Both the position numbers and the translations under genes were made by a program. Under the pieces are notes generated by a model. It ran no database searches and was not told where the DNA came from. It saw only the letters and a program-made list of their open reading frames with translations. A stretch of 64,000 bases of DNA from Eledone cirrhosa. Its lineage: Eukaryota. Below are positions 11,096-45,827 of the stretch, piece by piece; the stretch's first letter is position 1, and every line of letters begins with the position of its first letter. Location of the stretch: contig OZ024740.1 in NCBI GenBank assembly GCA_964016885.1, forward strand, positions 100,006,001-100,070,000, read 5' to 3'.

Positions 11096-11443
11096 TCATC
11101 ATCATTTTCATCATTTCATTTCACGTCCGCTTCTTCCCTGCTTGCAAGGGTGGGACGGGAACTGATTCTGGCTTGATTTCTACAGCTGGATGCCCTTCCT
11201 AACACCAACCTCATTTACAGTGAGTTCTAGGTGCTTTTTTGCCGTGGCACCTCCACAACCACTTTGCAGTGGAATGATATGGACCCCAATCTTATCATCC
11301 CATTTCTACAGCTGAGTAAACTAGAGCAATGTGAAATAAAGTGTCTTGCTCAAGGAAACAACACATCACCCAGTCTGAGAATTGAACTCACAACCTTTCG
11401 ATTGCAAGGCCAATGCTCTAACCACTAAGCCATATGCCTCCAT
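11096..11443 (-). mobile_element. Full-length tRNA-head, CORE-like SINE with RTE-derived middle and tail
   Basis: A-box (tggcttagtgg) and B-box (gagttcaattc), ccttgagcaagacactt core, RTE 5'UTR motif, and a tail nearly identical to RTE 44187-44224. Confidence 0.85.
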
Positions 11444-11599
11444 CATATATATATACATTTATATATATATTTCTAACTGTTGGTCAATTAATGATAAACA
11501 TTGATTGCCAGCTAAATTAACTATAGAGATGTAAAATTTACGGAAGTGAAAACCATCCCAAATCAAACAGAGAGTGTGTTTTATTATATATTATAACAA

Positions 11600-16100: not shown

Positions 16101-17233
16101 TGTGTGAACATATGTATATTTGCTTGTAAGTTTGTATGTATGTGTGTTATTGTGCTGTTGTGTTTCCACTTACACTCCTCACTATATCAGAGTCTGGTGG
16201 GGGAGCCGGTTTAGTTACCAACCACCCAAACATGAAACTGGTTTTACTGGGCTACATGGTACCAGTAACTGGGAGATACCTAACCAACAAGAGCTATCAA
16301 AGAGGTGATGAACTACACAGAATCAACTGTCATCCACCCTAACTATGGGTTAAATAGTCTTACCAGCTTGCAATTGGCCAAACAATGTGAGTATGGCTAC
16401 ACCCCATGGAAAAGTTCAATACCATGACAATCATACATGCGTTTTTTGTAACTGTCCTGTTATCTTGCTTTGACTTTTCACGGAACACATAACTGCGGGA
16501 ATCGACTGGGTGCTATGTCTATAGAACAAGCAGGTAACATTGCCATCTTTATGTGCAGATATTTCTTCACAAGTCCCACAGAGTTGGAGGAGTGGCAACA
16601 TGTGAAGACTCAACTGGTGAGAAGCATATAATCACAAATTTACATGTAGACATCTTGAGTCTTATCCTAATGTCGCTACACAGTTAACCTGAATAGCAGC
16701 ATGCTTCAGAGAAATCATGAGGGTCTGGGCAGCCTTTTTGGGGATACACTGCTCCCCCATACCACATCAAACTGACCAGCAGCCTGCAATTGGTAGTAAT
16801 TCATATTAACATGGAATTTGTTGAAGGGATGGCTGTCTTCTGTAAATAAGTTGCAGTTATCGTGTATGTATGATTCTTTTTTCTTTTGAGCAAAAGGCGT
16901 CTAGTCTTCATTTAGACATCTCTTTAGGGGAAGGTCAATCTGATATAAAACTTGGAACTTCATTTGCATCCAATTATATAGACCAGTTCTTCTTTTTAGG
17001 CAAATACATTCGATGTTCAGAGAGTGGGATTGGCTCCGTGCAAAGCCTTTCCTCACTTAAAAGAGCTTCAAAGACATTGATATTTTTTGTGATGCATAGT
17101 ATTGCTGGCTAATAGGCAAGTCTCTAAAAGGGCTAAAAAGCCATGACCGTGATACTCGGAATCGAGTTGCAGCCATCATGCATGCGGAAGAACTCATAAG
17201 AGTCAACGGCCATCCAAAAGTGTGTGGGTGCAT

Positions 17234-17537
17234 CGCTTAGTGGTTAGAGTATTGGGCTTGCAATCGAAAGGTTGTAAGTTCAATTCTCAGACCGGGCGAT
17301 ATGTTGTTTCCTTGAGCAAGACACTTTATTTCACATTGCTCCAGTTTACTCATCTGTAGAAATGAGATTATAGGGCTGCAAAGTGGTCGTGGAGGTGCCA
17401 CGGCAAAAAAACACTCAGCCCACATTGTAAAGTGGACGTGTAGGTGCCACGGAAAAAAAGCACCCAGCACTCACTGTAAATGAGGTTGGTGTTAGGAAGG
17501 GCATCCAGCTGTAGAAATCAAGCCAAAATCAGTTCCC
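17234..17537 (+). mobile_element. CORE-like RTE-partner SINE with two pseudoknot units, 3' truncated
   Basis: High identity to the reverse complement of 11096-11443. Confidence 0.85.
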
Positions 17538-18274
17538 AATGATGTTGATCTTTTCTTCTATTCGGGTTATAGCTACTGTTGCTCAGAGACTGGGATTGGC
17601 TCAGTGCACACTCTTTCCTCACTTTAAAAAATATCTTCACGCACAGGCATTGCACGATAGAATTAATTAATAATTATTGATAATGGTATATCGTACAATG
17701 GCCATACTCGATAACTAGGGGGCAGCCATCATGTATGTATGTATGTGCAAATATGTGAGTAGTACTTGTGAACCTTGAATTAAAAGTAATACATAAATGA
17801 TAACACTAATATTGAAACTATATTATATAATTAATGTTGAAAGTAACACTCATGAGCAGAGTGCACCATGGGTTTTCCTAGATTATGACTGGAGAGAAAA
17901 TTATTACCAGACAGATGAGAAAAGTTGCTGTAATTGAAACAAACTTCAACTGATGAGCTTCTCAGTATATTTTACCTGAAGCCTGTAAAAGTTAGTATAT
18001 ATAGCTGATAAAAATCTTCTCAAAGTTAACAGAAAAAAATCTAATATAATAAAAGTAAATTTAATGTAGATATAAGTAAAGTTTTTTTCAATTAGAAGCT
18101 CTTATTGTAAAAAGAATGAAGTGTCAATACTTTCCATATTCTCTCATATGCAGAAAAAAGAAGAGTTTATCGGTATGAATTTTGGTGATTTTTGTCTCCT
18201 TATCAGATGATAACAGCACTTATGATTCTGTCAATTTTCTTACAGCAACACTATATATATATATATATATATAT

Positions 18275-23413: not shown

Positions 23414-24502
23414 TACCTTCTTTATTAACCACAAAAGGGTTTACAAAAAAATACATTAAGGTCAGCACAGGATGGTAGTAATATGGGTTTCTGTGTGTAT
23501 AAACGAAAACAAAAACAAATGATGATGATGGTCATCATCATCATCATTAAATAAAGATGAGACTTCTGAGGGTTACTCGTGGAGAAATCCCACAAAATGC
23601 CATGGTGACCCTGACCACCAGGTAAAATGCCCTCTCCCAGTTTTCCACATCTAGCATACAGGTGCATAATCGGAGCAGGCCCATTCACTTGGGCCATGTT
23701 TGTCCCTCTCACTCATCTTTCAATGAAAAGCAAACTGAATAATAATAGTATCAACAACAACAATAACAATAACTATAATATACAATAACAGAGATGAAGT
23801 TTAATATCTTTATATCCTACATGGGTTTCTGTAGCTATTCTCATTCTTGTGTCTTTTATAAATGGTATGCTGAATAGTATAACTGTCATTACGATATGGT
23901 ATGATCTGCCGAGGTTAACTTTGCTTTTCATCCTTAGGGGGCCGATAAAATAAAGCACTAGTAATGGACTGGGGTAATTGCTAGCCTTTTGCCAACAAGT
24001 GGAAACAATTATGATACAGTATGACTCAGAGTATGTTCACTTCTTCAGAGAAATTTAACAAATGGCCTTAATTTAAGCAACAAAGTCGTTATAAAAACGA
24101 TTTTAGCATGCTTGACACATATACCATTAAAAGGAACACAGCAGTTCAAATTATACAAAATACAGTGTAAAAGAAAAAGACTTTGCAGATTCAAAAAATA
24201 ATTTTAAAAATACAGTGATGAAAGAGCACAATAAAGTTAAAAGACAAGAAATATATGTGAATATGAGTACATCTTCTAGGAAGCAATTTACTGTATTAAA
24301 TATAAAGAATAGAAAAAAGCTAGAATATAAATGTATAGGGTTAATTTTAAGAAAGAAAAGTGTTATTACAATAAATTAGTGGAAACATATTGCTACCAAG
24401 AATTGACCTAGTTAATAAGTAGATTTAATTTTATTGGATCATTCAATAGAATGATTACAAGGGTGATTACATTATTTAGTTACCTTTTAGTAAAATTATA
24501 TG

Positions 24503-24835
24503 ATGGAGGCACATGGCTTAGTGGTTAGAGCATTGGTCTTGCAATAGAAAGGTTGTGAATTCAATTCTCAGACCGGGTGATGTATTGTTTCCTTGAGCAA
24601 GACACTTTATTTCACATTGCTCCAGTTTACTCAGCTGTAGAAATGAAATGATAGGGACTGGAGTCCATATAATTCCACTGCAAAGTGGTCGTGGAGGTGT
24701 CACGGCAAAAAAAGCACCCAGCACTCACTGTAAATAAGGTTGGTGCTAGGAAGGGCATCCAGCTGTAGCAATCAAGCCAGAATCAGTTACCATCCCACCC
24801 TTGCAAGCAGGGAAAAGCGGACGTATGATGATGAT
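24503..24835 (+). mobile_element. Full-length CORE-like RTE-partner SINE
   Basis: tRNA-like head, core, pseudoknot unit, tail cccacccttgcaagcagggaaaagcggacg plus (GAT)n. Confidence 0.88.
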
Positions 24836-30016: not shown

Positions 30017-30375
30017 TTATTAAAATAACAGATTAAAGTTTAAGCAAAGAATCGCTGCTTTCACCCTTAATGGGATATTCTGAAACTAAAAAATCAATCT
30101 GTGAATGCTGAAGTAAATATTTAAAAACCCGTTGCAGCCGAAGGAAGATAGGAAGATGATACTTTGGTTTGTGGAAAGTTCCCTGGCAAAGACCGGATAA
30201 AAACGAAGATAATACGTCATTATTTGGAGCGTTGAGAACAATTACCCGCAAAGACAAAACCACGTATATGGTATAACCGAAGTTGTAGACTAACATTTTA
30301 GTCTTCAAATTTATTATTATTACTATATATATATACGATATTAATAAATGGAAACTATATTTATAAAACCATATT

Positions 30376-30440
30376 TATTTCATTATACATATTTCAGGGA
30401 TACCAAATTAAATTATGGTATGCCTTCATCAGACAAAATA
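30376..30440 (-). ncRNA. Type I hammerhead ribozyme-like motif (palindrome left arm)
   Basis: Exact reverse complement of 30572-30636. Confidence 0.75.
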
Positions 30441-30571
30441 CAATATATAACAGTTTTACAAATAAGCTTTGACGTACCCTTTTAAAATGCGACCATCTGG
30501 TGGCCTCCAAAAATAATGGTCGCATTTTAAAAGGGTACGTCAAAGCTTATTTGTAAAACTGTTATATATTG

Positions 30572-30636
30572 TATTTTGTCTGATGAAGGCATACCATAAT
30601 TTAATTTGGTATCCCTGAAATATGTATAATGAAATA
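30572..30636 (+). ncRNA. Type I hammerhead ribozyme-like motif (palindrome right arm)
   Basis: tattttgt-CTGATGA-aggcatacca/tggtatccct-GAAA-tatgta-TA-atgaaata. Core intact; predicted cleavage after AUA at 30628. Confidence 0.75.
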
Positions 30637-30763
30637 AATATGGTTTTAAAAATATAGTTTCCATTTATTAATATCGTATATCTACTCCAAATACTTGTTG
30701 AGTGCTTTATATCAGTTATAAAAATATTTACTTGTTGTATCCCAACAATTTAAATAGAAGTTT

Positions 30764-39225: not shown

Positions 39226-39572
39226 ATTGTCAATTTACTTTTCAATATATATGCATATATATTTGCGTATAATACCAATATGCGCACTACATATGCCAGC
39301 AGAAAACCGCCCGTGGGCGGTTTTGCTGCAAGTAAACATAATTCTGATAACTTAGGTAGGTTTTGGTCAGTATTCTAAGTTTATTTCATATTTAAGCCAT
39401 ACTTTGTTCTCAAGTAAGGAGTTGTTTTTGGTCAAAACATGTGGTAGTTTATATATTTCTTGAAGTAAATCTTGTGCACATATGAACATTTTAGTATGAT
39501 GTTGAAGAGATTTGGGTCAGTTAAGATGAAATTGTTCTGTCACAGTGTTATGTAATGCAAGCTTATATTTCA

Positions 39573-39960
39573 CTAGCAGTGGTACCCGGCGTTGCACGGG
39601 ATAAGGTATTTTGGAACGCGGGCTGCCAACAGACCTAACCATGGAAAAACTGCATGCCTCGACAATATGTAAAAAAGATAAACCGAATACTCTGATGGCC
39701 GGATACAGACAGCTAGACATATAGACAGATATTATAAGGCGCAATTTTATATGTATGTATCTATCTAAAAAGAGAAAGACTAAGAATTATAGAGAGAGAT
39801 CGCTAAATCGCCTACTTTGAATTTTTTTTTGCTCAGAACACTCCCTGAAACATAAGTATAGTATTACATGTGTAAAGTTTGATTTCACTCGCTCCACTAA
39901 AAGTTGGATTTTCTTTGCTCACGGTATGAAGAAGAGATTGACTAATACATAGTCATCTGC
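39573..39960 (-). mobile_element. Non-autonomous Helitron (3' end clear, 5' end approximate)
   Basis: Minus strand ends cccgtgcaacgccgggtaccactgCTAG|t, a hairpin followed by CTAG. Confidence 0.7.
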
Positions 39961-40009
39961 TTTCTTTTTTAGTGTTGTGTGAAATATATAGCCACCTTAG
40001 CTAAGCTTA

Positions 40010-40480
40010 GTATTGCCACAACCACTGTCTTTTATGATATCTATGATTAGTTAATCTCTCATCAGTGACAATCACTTAACAGGTAGTGAGATGATAATAG
40101 ACTAGAGCTTATATAGATTTTGCATGATGAACATTTGCTGGAGAAGCCAATTTGCACATAGCAAATAGACAAACTTGGCTGGAAATGTTCATTTGCCTGT
40201 AGTGTGAATTTGGCTGGTTATAATCAATTGGCAATAGCCCGAAGATAGCGTTAAGCATAGTAGGCATGTATACGAAAACATATACTTTATGTTTATATAC
40301 TATATGTAAATGAGCATTTCCAGCAGATAGTTTTTATTTTCTACATGCAAATGAGTATTTTTAGCAGATGTTCATCACTCAAAATCTATATAGGCTGTAG
40401 TTTATTTTCATCTCAGTACTGAATGAGTGAATGTCTCTGAAGAGAGATTAACATATCTTGAAACAGCTGTCTGGCATTCT
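40010..40480. repeat. Diverged inverted repeat (fold-back element 3)
   Basis: ~40010-40202 vs ~40300-40480; e.g. gttaatctctcatcagtgacaatcac pairs with gtgaatgtctctgaagagagattaac. Confidence 0.85.
40429..40479 (+). ncRNA. Minimal type I hammerhead ribozyme with palindromic stem III
   Basis: gaatgtct-CTGAAGA-gagat(taacat)atctt-GAAA-cagct-GTC-tggcattc. GUC at 40469-40471; ACAGCTGT is a palindrome. Confidence 0.8.
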
Positions 40481-41834
40481 CTATGTCTACTGAGATATGT
40501 ATGACATGTTCACAGACCAAAAAAGAGAAAAATAATTTTTTCACAAAGAAAACTCCTGTCCCCTTCTACCCTAAACCTGAAGTAACAAAGAGGTTATTTA
40601 ACATTTAGGTCCTTCCCTGTTAGTATTGAACACATACTAGCATGAACATTTAGACCGATTCACCTTGTCTTCTGAACCTTTGCACCCCCGACATTTTCTC
40701 AGAAGGAAATCCTGAAATACTCCAAAATGACTGACACAACCCAAATAGTTGCTCCAAGGGCGCCCCTTTCTCCCACTGCAAAGGGTACATACACGCTCCT
40801 TTTAGACCATCAAGGGAAGGCAGACACATAACACAGTATGTCATATACCATCATTTTGCTTCAAGGCAACAACCATGAGCCCTCTTCCAGCAGTGCAATG
40901 TCTGTAGTCTAGCCAAAATCTCCAGCAATGCCTCTTCACTAAGGCCAAGTACACTGAACACCATAGTGCTCTAATGAAGTAATGCTGGTGTAATGACAAA
41001 CACACCCAGTTCACCTTTGAAGTGGTAGTGCCAGAAGTGCATTAAAATGCTCCAAGTACATGGCATCCAGCTATAGAAATCAAGCCAAAACAACGAGTAA
41101 AAGCAGGAACTAGTCGCCTAACCAGTTGAGCTTTAACACATGACAGCCATCTAACCCATAGATGCATGGAAATGATGATATATCACATATGAGTAAAAAG
41201 AAGGGTACACTTAGAAATATAATGTTATACATACAGAGATGTGTGTATGAGCATCGATTTATATAAAAGAAAATGTAGATGTTTCAACAAAACAAACAGA
41301 TCTGTTATATTTATATTACTACAAAAGAAATGTAGTGATTAAAACGAATTAACATAATTTCATAAGTTAGGAGACACAATACATTAGCCAATTTCAAATG
41401 TGTGAATAAACGCATTAAATCAATATTCTAGGAAAAATATATTTAAGATGATGTAATATTTCTAACCATTATTATGATCATCAATTTGCCATTTTCAAAC
41501 ATGAGTAAAGATTAAAGAAGTGTTCTCTAAGGCATGTGGCTCTATCTTTGCCTTAAAAATAATCTACTTATATTTAAATACACAAACAGATGTGTATATA
41601 CTAACATATTATGGTGCATAAATGCATGTAATTGGCTGACAAATTTGATTGTTTAAAATATCAATGGTTGAGAAATCTCGTGATCTGAAGCTAGAATATA
41701 GCCTTAAAAGAAAACAAGCAAATGTTATATATATTATTGATGTACTTCGTTTGTGAATGCATGTTTGCACAAACACACATACACACAGACACACATATAT
41801 ATATATATATACATACATATACATTTATATATAC

Positions 41835-43286: not shown

Positions 43287-43563
43287 CTGGCTTGATTTCT
43301 ACAGCTGGATGCCCTTCCTAACACCAACCTCATTTACAGTGAGTGCTGGGTGCTTTTTTTCCCATGGCACCTCCACGACCACTTTACAGTGGAATGATAT
43401 GGACCCCAGTCCCTATTATCTCATTTCTACAGCTGAGTAAACTGGAGCAATGTGAAATAAAGTGTCTTACTCAAGGAAACAACACATCACCCAGTCTGAG
43501 AATTGAACTCACAACCTTTCGATTGCAAGTCCAATGCTCTAACTACTAAGCCATGTGCCTCCA
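43287..43563 (-). mobile_element. CORE-like RTE-partner SINE, 3' truncated
   Basis: Matches 11170-11443. Confidence 0.85.
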
Positions 43564-43584
43564 TTATATGTATGTATATATAAT

Positions 43585-43732
43585 AATTGTTTCTACTTTA
43601 GGCACAAGGCCAGCAATTACCCAGTGCATTACTGGTACATATTTTATCGACCCCGTAAGGATAAAAGGCAAAGTCAACCTCGGCGGGATTTGAACTCAGA
43701 TCGTAAAGGGACGTAACTATGCTGGAAAGCAT
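43585..43732 (-). mobile_element. Meta-domain-like SINE
   Basis: Reverse complement of the 13580 family. Confidence 0.8.
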
Positions 43733-43914: not shown

Positions 43915-44150
43915 TATTAGTTAGGTGACAAAATCAGCAGTGGAGGAGGGTGCTCTGAAAGTGTAGTAGCCAGAATTAAAACGGGTTGGAAAAAGTTCAG
44001 AGAGCTAATACCGCTGTTGGCCACAAGGGGTTTTTCTCTAAAAATGAAAGGCAGGTTGTGTGATGCATATATATGAATGGCGGTATTACATGGTAGTGAA
44101 ACTTGGGCATTGTGTGCTGATGACCTGCATAGATTGGAAAGAAATAAAGC
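43915..44150 (+). mobile_element. Older RTE RT fragment; left half of a split copy
   Basis: LGDKISSGGGCSESVVARIKTGWKKFRELIPLL...HGSETWALCADDLHRLERNKA; continues at ~48750. Confidence 0.85.
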
Positions 44151-44186: not shown

Positions 44187-45827
44187 TTACGTCCGCTTTT
44201 CCCTGCTTGCAAGGGTGGGACGGGTCTTATTCAGCACAGCATCTCTCCACTCGTCACGGTCCCTCATCATCTCCACCGTGAGCTTCAATGATCTGAGGTC
44301 TGTTCTCACCACCTCCGCCCATGTTTTTCGTGGTCTACCTCTACCACGTCTTCCATCAACTGGCATTTCCTGGCACTTCTTCACCCATCGGTCATCCTCC
44401 ATGCGCATCACATGTCCATACCACCTCAGTCTCCTTTCCCTTACACTACATTCTATCCCTCTCAGACACAGTTTCTCTCTCAACACATTTATGCTGGGTC
44501 GTTCACGCACATTTACACTGCACATCCAACGGAGCATGCTTGCCTCATTTTTCTCCAGCCGTCGCATATCCTCTGCAGTTGCTGCCCATGTCTCACTACC
44601 ATGCAGCATCGCGCTCCTCACACAGGCATCATACAACCGGCCTTTCGTACGCAGGGAGAAACCCTTCTTCGTCAACAGAGGAAGCAGCTCCCTAAACTTC
44701 TTCCAACCCGTCCTTATTCTAGATACTATGGCCTCGGAACACCCTCCTCCCATGCTAATCTGATCTCCTAGGTACCGGAAGCTATCCACCACTTCTATAG
44801 CGCCCTCTTGCATTTGAAAAATGTGTCTATCAGTGCGACTTCTACTGTCTAATTTCCCTGTACATCTACTGCATACATATTTCTCCCTACCTGTTAGTTT
44901 GCCTGCTATCCCGCTACATCTCTTGTGTACCCAGGATTTGCATTGTGTGCATTTTATAGAATTTATGCCAGTTCCTTTTCTGCATATCGAACATGGCCAT
45001 TTCCCTGACGGAATCAGGGTTTTGTCCTATTTTCTACTCATCAACACTTTTGTCTTAGCTAGATTCACTCTCAGTCCTCTTGCTTCCAACTGCTGTTTCC
45101 ATAGCCAGAATTTATTCTCTAACTCCTCTACTGATTCTGCTATAAGAACCAGATCGTCCGCATAGAGAAGTTCCCTTGGACAGCCAGTCTTAAACTCCTC
45201 TGTTATGGCTTGGAGGACTATAATGAACAACAGCGGGCTGAGGACCGAACCCGGATGTACTCCTACTTGTATCTGGAATTCCTCACTAAACTTCATTCCT
45301 ACCCTAACTTTACTGACAGAACCTCTGTACAAAGTTTGCACTGTCCTCACAAGCCATTCCTCAACATCTAGCTTCCTTAGGGACCACCAGATGACAGATC
45401 GGGGTACCCTATCAAAGGCCTTCTCTAGGTCAACAAAGGCTAAGTATAGTGGCTTATTCTTCTCTAAGAACCTCTCTTGCATTTGTCTCACCAAGAAGAG
45501 GGCATCTGTTGTACTCTTCCCAGGCACAAAACCAAACTGCATCTCATCTAGTTTGACCCTTTCTCTAATTAGTTGTACTAAAATCTTTTCTGCCACTTTC
45601 ATAACCTGATCTATCAGTTTCATACCCCTATAATTGCTCCTCTCCAAAGCATCTCCTTTACCTTTGTAGCGATTTATGAGAATACTGCTGCACCAGTCTT
45701 TGGGTATGACACCACCATATATAGCCTGATTGATGATGCGTGCAACCAGTTTAGTGTCTACGTCCCCTGATGCCTTCAGCATCTCAGCAACTATTCCCGA
45801 TGGTCCGGCCGCCTTACCATTTTTCAT
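44187..45827 (-). pseudogene. RTE ORF, reverse transcriptase with PHD-like finger; one premature TAG at 45027-45029
   Basis: NYRG, QFGF, FVDLEKAFDRV, GVHPGSVLSPLLF, LLYADDL, FRYLG. ORFs 45027-45827 and 44187-44813 are in the same frame. Confidence 0.92.

Follow-up and report, generated by a model that had tools for sequence, protein, structure and literature searches.

How does a short inverted repeat come to carry hammerhead ribozymes that face outward? The question is raised by a fold-back at 40045-40552 of a 64-kb stretch of the Eledone cirrhosa contig OZ024740.1 (the window, meaning here the whole stretch analysed), for which the original prediction had considered a recurrent mechanism or a class of non-autonomous hammerhead fold-back elements. 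The locus is very probably a decayed head-to-head insertion, of the type made by Penelope-like elements (PLEs), of a non-coding hammerhead unit of ~389 nt. Judged by its sequence, this unit is likely to be a non-LTR retrozyme, and the RT and GIY-YIG endonuclease of a PLE likely copied it into the genome.

A fold-back search of the window recovered the inverted pair, 40045-40203 and 40299-40457, so that the fold-back itself is real, but the paired arms are 159 nt long and 75% complementary (120 of 159 identical) and not ~190 bp as first described. Comparison with other genomic copies extends both arms beyond this paired part (Table 1). The interval 40204-40298 maps to the family unit on the minus strand, and the seeming spacer is therefore left-arm sequence; neither this nor the continuation of the right arm to 40552 had been noticed before. 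The left arm is 87% identical to the family majority and reaches back to unit position -78, which belongs to the end of a preceding tandem unit, while the right arm stops 84 nt before the nearer usual 3' end of the family unit. The internal duplication of ~40 bp that had been predicted in each arm is present, matching at 26 of 36 positions in the right arm, at 21 in the left and at 30 in the family majority, and is reduced to a single repeat in some family copies. Of the 159 sites, 22 in one arm and 24 in the other depart from the majority; five of these differences fall at common positions (3.3 expected) and two are identical, which fits independent decay of the arms.

Table 1. Features of the fold-back locus and its left neighbour, in window coordinates.
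Feature	Position	Strand	Description
Unrelated younger high-copy repeat	39572..40025	+	Truncated at 40025; not part of the fold-back element
Filler	40026..40044		19 nt separating the younger repeat from the shortened left arm; no match to either family
Left arm	40045..40304	-	260 nt, unit positions -78 to 181 (running from 40304 to 40045); outer end lost
5' half-hammerhead	40045..40073	-	Stem I 5' strand, CUGAUGA at 40065-40059, stem II
Apparent spacer	40204..40298	-	Single-copy loop; family sequence of the left arm, spanning the unit end-to-start junction
Head-to-head junction	40299..40304		Arms overlap by 2 exact bases (40299-40300), 5/6 when extended
Right arm	40299..40552	+	Unit positions 23-274; 85% identity to family majority; outer end lost
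Internal duplication	40300..40376	+	Period 41; mirrored at 40126-40202 of the left arm
Minimal type I hammerhead	40429..40479	+	Stem I 40429-40436/40472-40479, core CUGAAGA 40437-40443, stem II 40444-40459
Right-arm hammerhead, 3' part	40460..40471	+	GAAA 40460-40463, palindromic stem III ACAGCUGU 40463-40470, triplet GUC ending 40471

The right-arm motif, described earlier as a textbook minimal hammerhead, does have the core, the GAAA, the palindrome and the GUC, with a predicted cut after 40471, but two U.U pairs make it less than perfect: one is the first pair of stem I, next to the core, which is A-U in 71 of the 83 family rows of the hammerhead alignment, and the other replaces the sixth pair of stem II, a stem of 5 bp. 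A hammerhead pattern matched 71 times in the 3.0-Gb genome and its reversed control not once, which indicates that the motif is not due to chance; an Rfam scan of the whole window up to E 1 returned 40 matches with no hammerhead family among them. The family stems show compensatory changes from one subfamily to another (AU in 54 rows and GC in 15 at pair 21-34), and none of 500 shuffles reaches the covariation score; relatedness among the copies inflates these counts, however, and the pattern by which most rows were picked already imposes the core and stem III. For this alignment, six of the 87 motif rows were omitted (four with indels, two partial), two were trimmed by 1-2 bases and two rows of a third subfamily were added. 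Among 15 new loci, six (L191, L199, L200, L204, L206 and L210) have a stem III palindrome with two extra middle bases and the look of a decayed CG. The short palindromic helix III, the compensatory changes and a palindrome variant with two extra bases are also features of the minimal PLE hammerheads treated in sections of Cervera and de la Pena 2014 (PMC4209133).

The whole but decayed hammerhead that had been placed in the left arm at 40012-40072 does not hold up. Family homology ends at 40045, after stem II, the 'tggcaat' that was to supply a stem I strand belongs to the unrelated repeat, and 63 of 1260 background windows match the continuation past 40045 as well. Since the homology ends there and the neighbouring repeat is foreign, what is left is half a ribozyme that a subsequent deletion or insertion has severed, with the cleavage site, stem III and GAAA all missing. 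The neighbouring repeat has 1122 candidates in the genome and is 92-97% identical to other copies, the best of which extend beyond its stop at 40025; its start is reminiscent of Helitron/DINE-1-type elements. When the missing outer part of the left arm was sought beyond this repeat, 570 of 1250 background windows scored as high, and comparison across the whole window found no missing outer part of either arm. With both outer ends gone, tail, target and duplication cannot be read at this locus.

These properties can be read from the family. A genome search with the right arm gave 697 candidates, of which 40 were scored, the main matches being 77-85% identical. Seven duplicates and 10 loci of the neighbouring repeat were dropped beforehand, and 87 loci were examined, 82 matching the unit and five without a match; the loci are top hits and pattern hits and thus a non-random sample. 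The aligned copies define a unit of ~389 nt that follows directly on itself, end to start, and 37 of the 82 loci cross this junction. Two same-strand hammerheads lie 394 nt apart in L208, and L201 holds ~2.2 units. Most copies are dispersed pieces of 0.5-1.5 units that differ by ~15% from the majority and are old. The unit has a GC content of 33%, its longest ATG frame is 44 codons, and its predicted circular fold of -101.3 kcal/mol has a z of -7.1 against 40 shuffles (antisense, -4.0). Thus, the tandem unit (period 389) falls within 150-450 nt and below 45% GC, is non-coding and, according to the predicted fold, highly self-paired as RNA, and there is one type I hammerhead per unit, complete in the right arm and half in the left. 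A dispersed, non-coding tandem unit with a hammerhead fits a non-LTR retrozyme.

Metazoan non-LTR retrozymes, in the sections of Cervera and de la Pena 2020 (PMC7229834) and of the preprint of Li, Clavereau and Pollet 2026 (bioRxiv 10.64898/2026.07.22.740005) that describe them, resemble the unit in having a type I hammerhead, a length of 150-450 nt, low GC, no coding capacity, a self-paired structure, both monomers and tandems, and a proposed PLE origin. The ~389-nt family differs from them in consisting mostly of dispersed copies of 0.5-1.5 units with PLE-type inversions rather than of long arrays and in being old. The word 'inverted' does not occur in the main text of the former paper and occurs once in the preprint.

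Could the arms be stumps, left by 5' truncation, of a coding PLE's end (its pLTR), with no independent non-coding unit behind them? All insertion marks of the family are of PLE type, and the genome does have coding PLEs with minimal hammerheads near the 3' end: a GIY-YIG search (PF01541) gave 10,596 candidates, in which the long frames carry RT + GIY-YIG and several coding GIY-YIG frames have a minimal hammerhead downstream. A stump, however, should not be preceded by its own end, as the unit so often is, for up to ~2.2 units. Unlike the PLEs covered in parts of Arkhipova et al. 2013 (PMC3846280) and Craig et al. 2021 (PMC8557442), the unit has no RT or GIY-YIG frame, let alone the combined open reading frame of an autonomous PLE, and BLASTN of the unit against 46 GIY-YIG loci from the 10,596 candidates found no match. 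Tblastn with 14 PLE proteins over 168 loci and the window found a single match, in L056, ~1 kb from the family segment. In the family majority, the frame opened by the core ATG of the hammerhead reaches a stop after three codons, whereas the coding element PAc, the Poseidon PLE of Anolis carolinensis, has an ORF that begins in the hammerhead, as stated in passages of PMC11167929. With the unit's own end upstream of it and no PLE protein match alongside, a PLE stump is probably the wrong reading, and we consider an origin of this kind quite improbable.

The divergent hammerhead of L079, followed for an autonomous partner, led to a third, distant non-coding subfamily, L150-L169, with 356 candidates, a tandem period of ~320-330 and different stem I and stem II pairs. 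It shows the two-ended tail pattern and the head-to-head pairs of the main family.

The orientation of neighbouring copies in the 82 loci, all of them top or pattern hits, is not random. Among opposite-strand neighbours within 500 bp, the window included, 27 are head-to-head, with 3' ends outward, and two are tail-to-tail (two-sided binomial, ~2e-6); the two exceptions, L083 and L099, each also hold a head-to-head pair. The recurrent outward polarity proposed for the window is thereby upheld, as it is for its other two fold-backs, in 14 of 15 loci of the family found at 30328-30684 and in the cores at 793 (minus) and 2334 (plus). The latter belong to a fold-back at 720-923 and 2200-2407, with arms ~86% alike, a long stem II and a stem III of 3 bp.

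The ends of the copies carry a further signature. Of 119 3' ends, 24 lie at 355-360 and 32 at 383-401, which marks two sites ~30 nt apart (~358 and 388-390), and 63 lie elsewhere; 5' ends are scattered over the unit. When both ends of a fold-back are at preferred sites, as in 11 cases, eight combine a long with a short end, two are long-long and one is short-short, so that at the family level the tail is one-sided in 8 of 11. A dinucleotide repeat adjoins 33 of 59 preferred-site ends, compared with 10% of random background positions, and in a search for target-site duplications at the 11 intact fold-backs only microsatellite or common words of 4-6 nt were found. The family thus combines inverted, 5'-truncated head-to-head copies and ragged 5' ends with AT-rich or microsatellite targets, as PLE insertions do.

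The parallels are close. Arkhipova et al. (PMC3846280) describe, in the parts dealing with insertion structure, adjacent inverted pLTRs, most frequently head-to-head, with an optional 31-bp tail on one of them, which these authors read as self-priming on an antisense template. The corresponding parts of Craig et al. (PMC8557442) give the same layout with its tail, (TA)n targets and hidden duplications, and name the way in which PLEs make inverted repeats as an open task. In both, insertions of endonuclease-bearing PLEs share with the ~389-nt family the inverted, 5'-truncated head-to-head copy, partial tandems, a tail of 30-40 bp that is usually one-sided, microsatellites that hide duplications, and a hammerhead in the terminal repeat. 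Passages of PMC11167929 report two internal start sites that define the tail, cutting of AT-rich DNA on both strands, and hammerhead cleavage that is dispensable in vitro; PAc resembles the unit in its two preferred 3' ends, its AT-rich targets, an AC-rich stretch near the end and ends that lie off the hammerhead cut site. The outward-facing head-to-head layout with a one-sided tail is, according to these portions of PMC3846280 and PMC8557442, already published for PLEs, and the outward polarity is a known by-product of PLE integration. A literature search found no paper devoted to non-coding hammerhead fold-backs, although subscription papers, supplements and figures may hold such cases.

Inverted arms in TA-rich flanks could mimic the terminal repeats and TA duplication of a MITE or foldback DNA transposon, in which the hammerhead-like motif would be incidental, and the earlier warning of misannotation as MITEs is well founded for fold-backs in (TA)n. 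Yet family copies are mostly single arms or tandem units, most have no symmetric terminal inverted repeats, their ends are usually unequal, and the centre varies, so that no one internal structure is common to them. The stems covary as RNA structure, and no non-microsatellite duplication is evident at the 11 intact fold-backs. The solo and tandem copies and the changing junctions refute this reading, the least probable of all those considered, which had been named (arms that are DNA-transposon TIRs with TSDs) as a case that would refute the original prediction. The view of a non-autonomous, PLE-related element that is not a MITE is supported.

Movement as a fold-back is another matter. A class of hammerhead fold-backs could be transcribed and mobilized as a hairpin, with outward ribozymes trimming the ends; fold-backs are common, at 27 of 82 loci here and 14 of 15 in the family of 30328-30684, and the window has three that are unrelated. 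The junctions, however, speak for separate formation, since all 27 fold-backs differ in their pair of junction positions, and a head-to-head partner is absent from 55 of the 82 loci. Elements end ~160-195 nt beyond the hammerhead cut site and not at it, and nothing suggests that the two arms have been maintained together. Whichever strand of the locus is transcribed, the RNA contains only one sense hammerhead, and in predicted folding, forcing the hammerhead costs 25.9 kcal/mol across the fold-back transcript compared with 5.1 in the right arm alone, so that the hairpin is predicted to trap the right-arm ribozyme. A hairpin that moves as such is therefore very improbable, and a class of elements that does so is not supported. 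Nor does cleavage as a dimer through the palindromic stem III apply to these arms: in the sections of PMC4209133 that present it, the model concerns tandem copies, whereas the second copy at this locus is partial and lies on the other strand, and a ribozyme dimer thus cannot form in cis.

If the locus is a PLE-type insertion of the non-coding unit, how was the second arm made? On that condition we moderately favour snap-back of the cDNA, and two-ended priming appears rather doubtful. For snap-back, the PLE protein would be recruited by unit RNA in tandem or circular form, probably after processing by hammerheads that pair at their palindromic stem III; the endonuclease would nick AT-rich DNA, and reverse transcription would begin at one of the two internal sites. 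The cDNA would halt early (here at unit position -78), fold back on microhomology (position 23) and prime itself; self-copying of the folded-back cDNA would place both 3' ends, and hence both hammerheads, outward. Resolution of the second end would follow, in most cases at the start site that had not been used first. The fold-back would be a dead-end product, newly made at each insertion, in which the arms later decayed independently while deletions or insertions presumably took the outer end of each arm, together with half of the left hammerhead.

Two other sets of loci bear on this step. At 30328-30684, with a tail to ~30770, the window holds a copy of an unrelated and very young hammerhead-like family (L170-L184, 98-99% identity), the best candidate for a family that is still active. 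The head-to-head fold-backs that make up 14 of its 15 loci lie in (TA)n and have different junctions; there is one tail-to-tail pair among its rows. Each of the 14 pairs a short end with a long one that carries a tail of ~90 nt, longer than the 30-40 bp given in the PLE papers cited, as far as their sections on tails go. Its arm lengths are paired, both being at least 231 in three loci and both at most 187 in 11. The second is a coding PLE. L139:1760-5025 (G000:C1:97885500-97892500) is a 99.7% palindrome of ~3.3 kb, 5'-truncated, each arm of which carries a hammerhead and a GIY-YIG ORF; its loop is 8 nt long, only one end is tailed, and (TA)n flanks it on either side. Head-to-head GIY-YIG frames also occur in L140 and L149.

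The 8-nt loop of L139, the paired arm lengths of the young family and the near-equal 5' ends of the ~389-nt family (at most 10 nt apart in 5 of 27 fold-backs) argue for snap-back. The arms may instead be separate cDNAs, begun where a PLE protein dimer nicks both strands and primes at both start sites, and joined by microhomology. The PLE protein of the anole works on both strands, cutting and extending each, has two start sites and is a predicted dimer, according to portions of PMC11167929; long and short ends are combined in 14 of 14 and 8 of 11 fold-backs of the two families, either arm may be the longer in the ~389-nt family, and the junction microhomology fits two cDNAs equally well. Independent truncations, on the other hand, are unlikely to end within 8 nt of each other at 1.6 kb from the end, as they would have to in L139, and paired arm lengths would not be expected of them. 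Overall, we regard two separate cDNAs as an unlikely explanation of the locus. Since either route orients the hammerheads outward, the polarity does not need selection.

The coupling of ends, one tailed and one not, in the young family, the ~389-nt family and the coding L139, taken together with the paired arms, leads us to suggest, tentatively and at somewhat less than even confidence, that snap-back followed by resolution at the second site is a fixed reaction, performed in trans on protein-free retrozyme RNA. The arm that carries the tail exceeds the other in length in 3 of 8 fold-backs of the ~389-nt family but in 11 of 14 young-family loci (the calls for L175 and L182 being taken from a separate mapping because the comparison reference is itself a fold-back), and this discrepancy means that no single order of events fits both families.

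As a single locus, 40045-40552 is an ordinary, old and broken copy of a known kind of parasite. The insertion scars of its family support the proposed link between PLEs and retrozymes by a line of evidence distinct from homology, and the counts of end pairing and loop length bear on how PLEs form inverted repeats, a matter for which an in vitro PLE system is already available as a test. If a fixed snap-back reaction in trans does take place, the spread of retrozymes would be tied to PLE enzymes by mechanism and not by homology, short hammerhead fold-backs would constitute a large natural record of an unresolved step of PLE integration, and there would be exact product structures to seek in that system.

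Additional features of the genome and the window were recorded. At least four PLE lineages are present in the genome at 41-57% identity, one with copies that are 97% identical. Uninterrupted RT/GIY-YIG frames occur at L134:1275-4562 (1096 aa), L135:2309-5122 (938 aa) and L136:1988-4519 (844 aa); ahead of the endonuclease they have a CX4CxxC motif such as PMC8557442, in its account of the clades, gives for Neptune and Nematis. In the window, tRNA-like matches at 43492-43555 (minus) and 11371-11434 (minus) lie inside a repeat of ~300 bp, with copies at 11123-11475, 17231-17538, 24497-24824 and 43287-43595, that is probably a tRNA-derived SINE. A further inverted pair, 43922-44109 and 44583-44770 (71%), consists of LINE-like coding fragments and is devoid of a hammerhead core.
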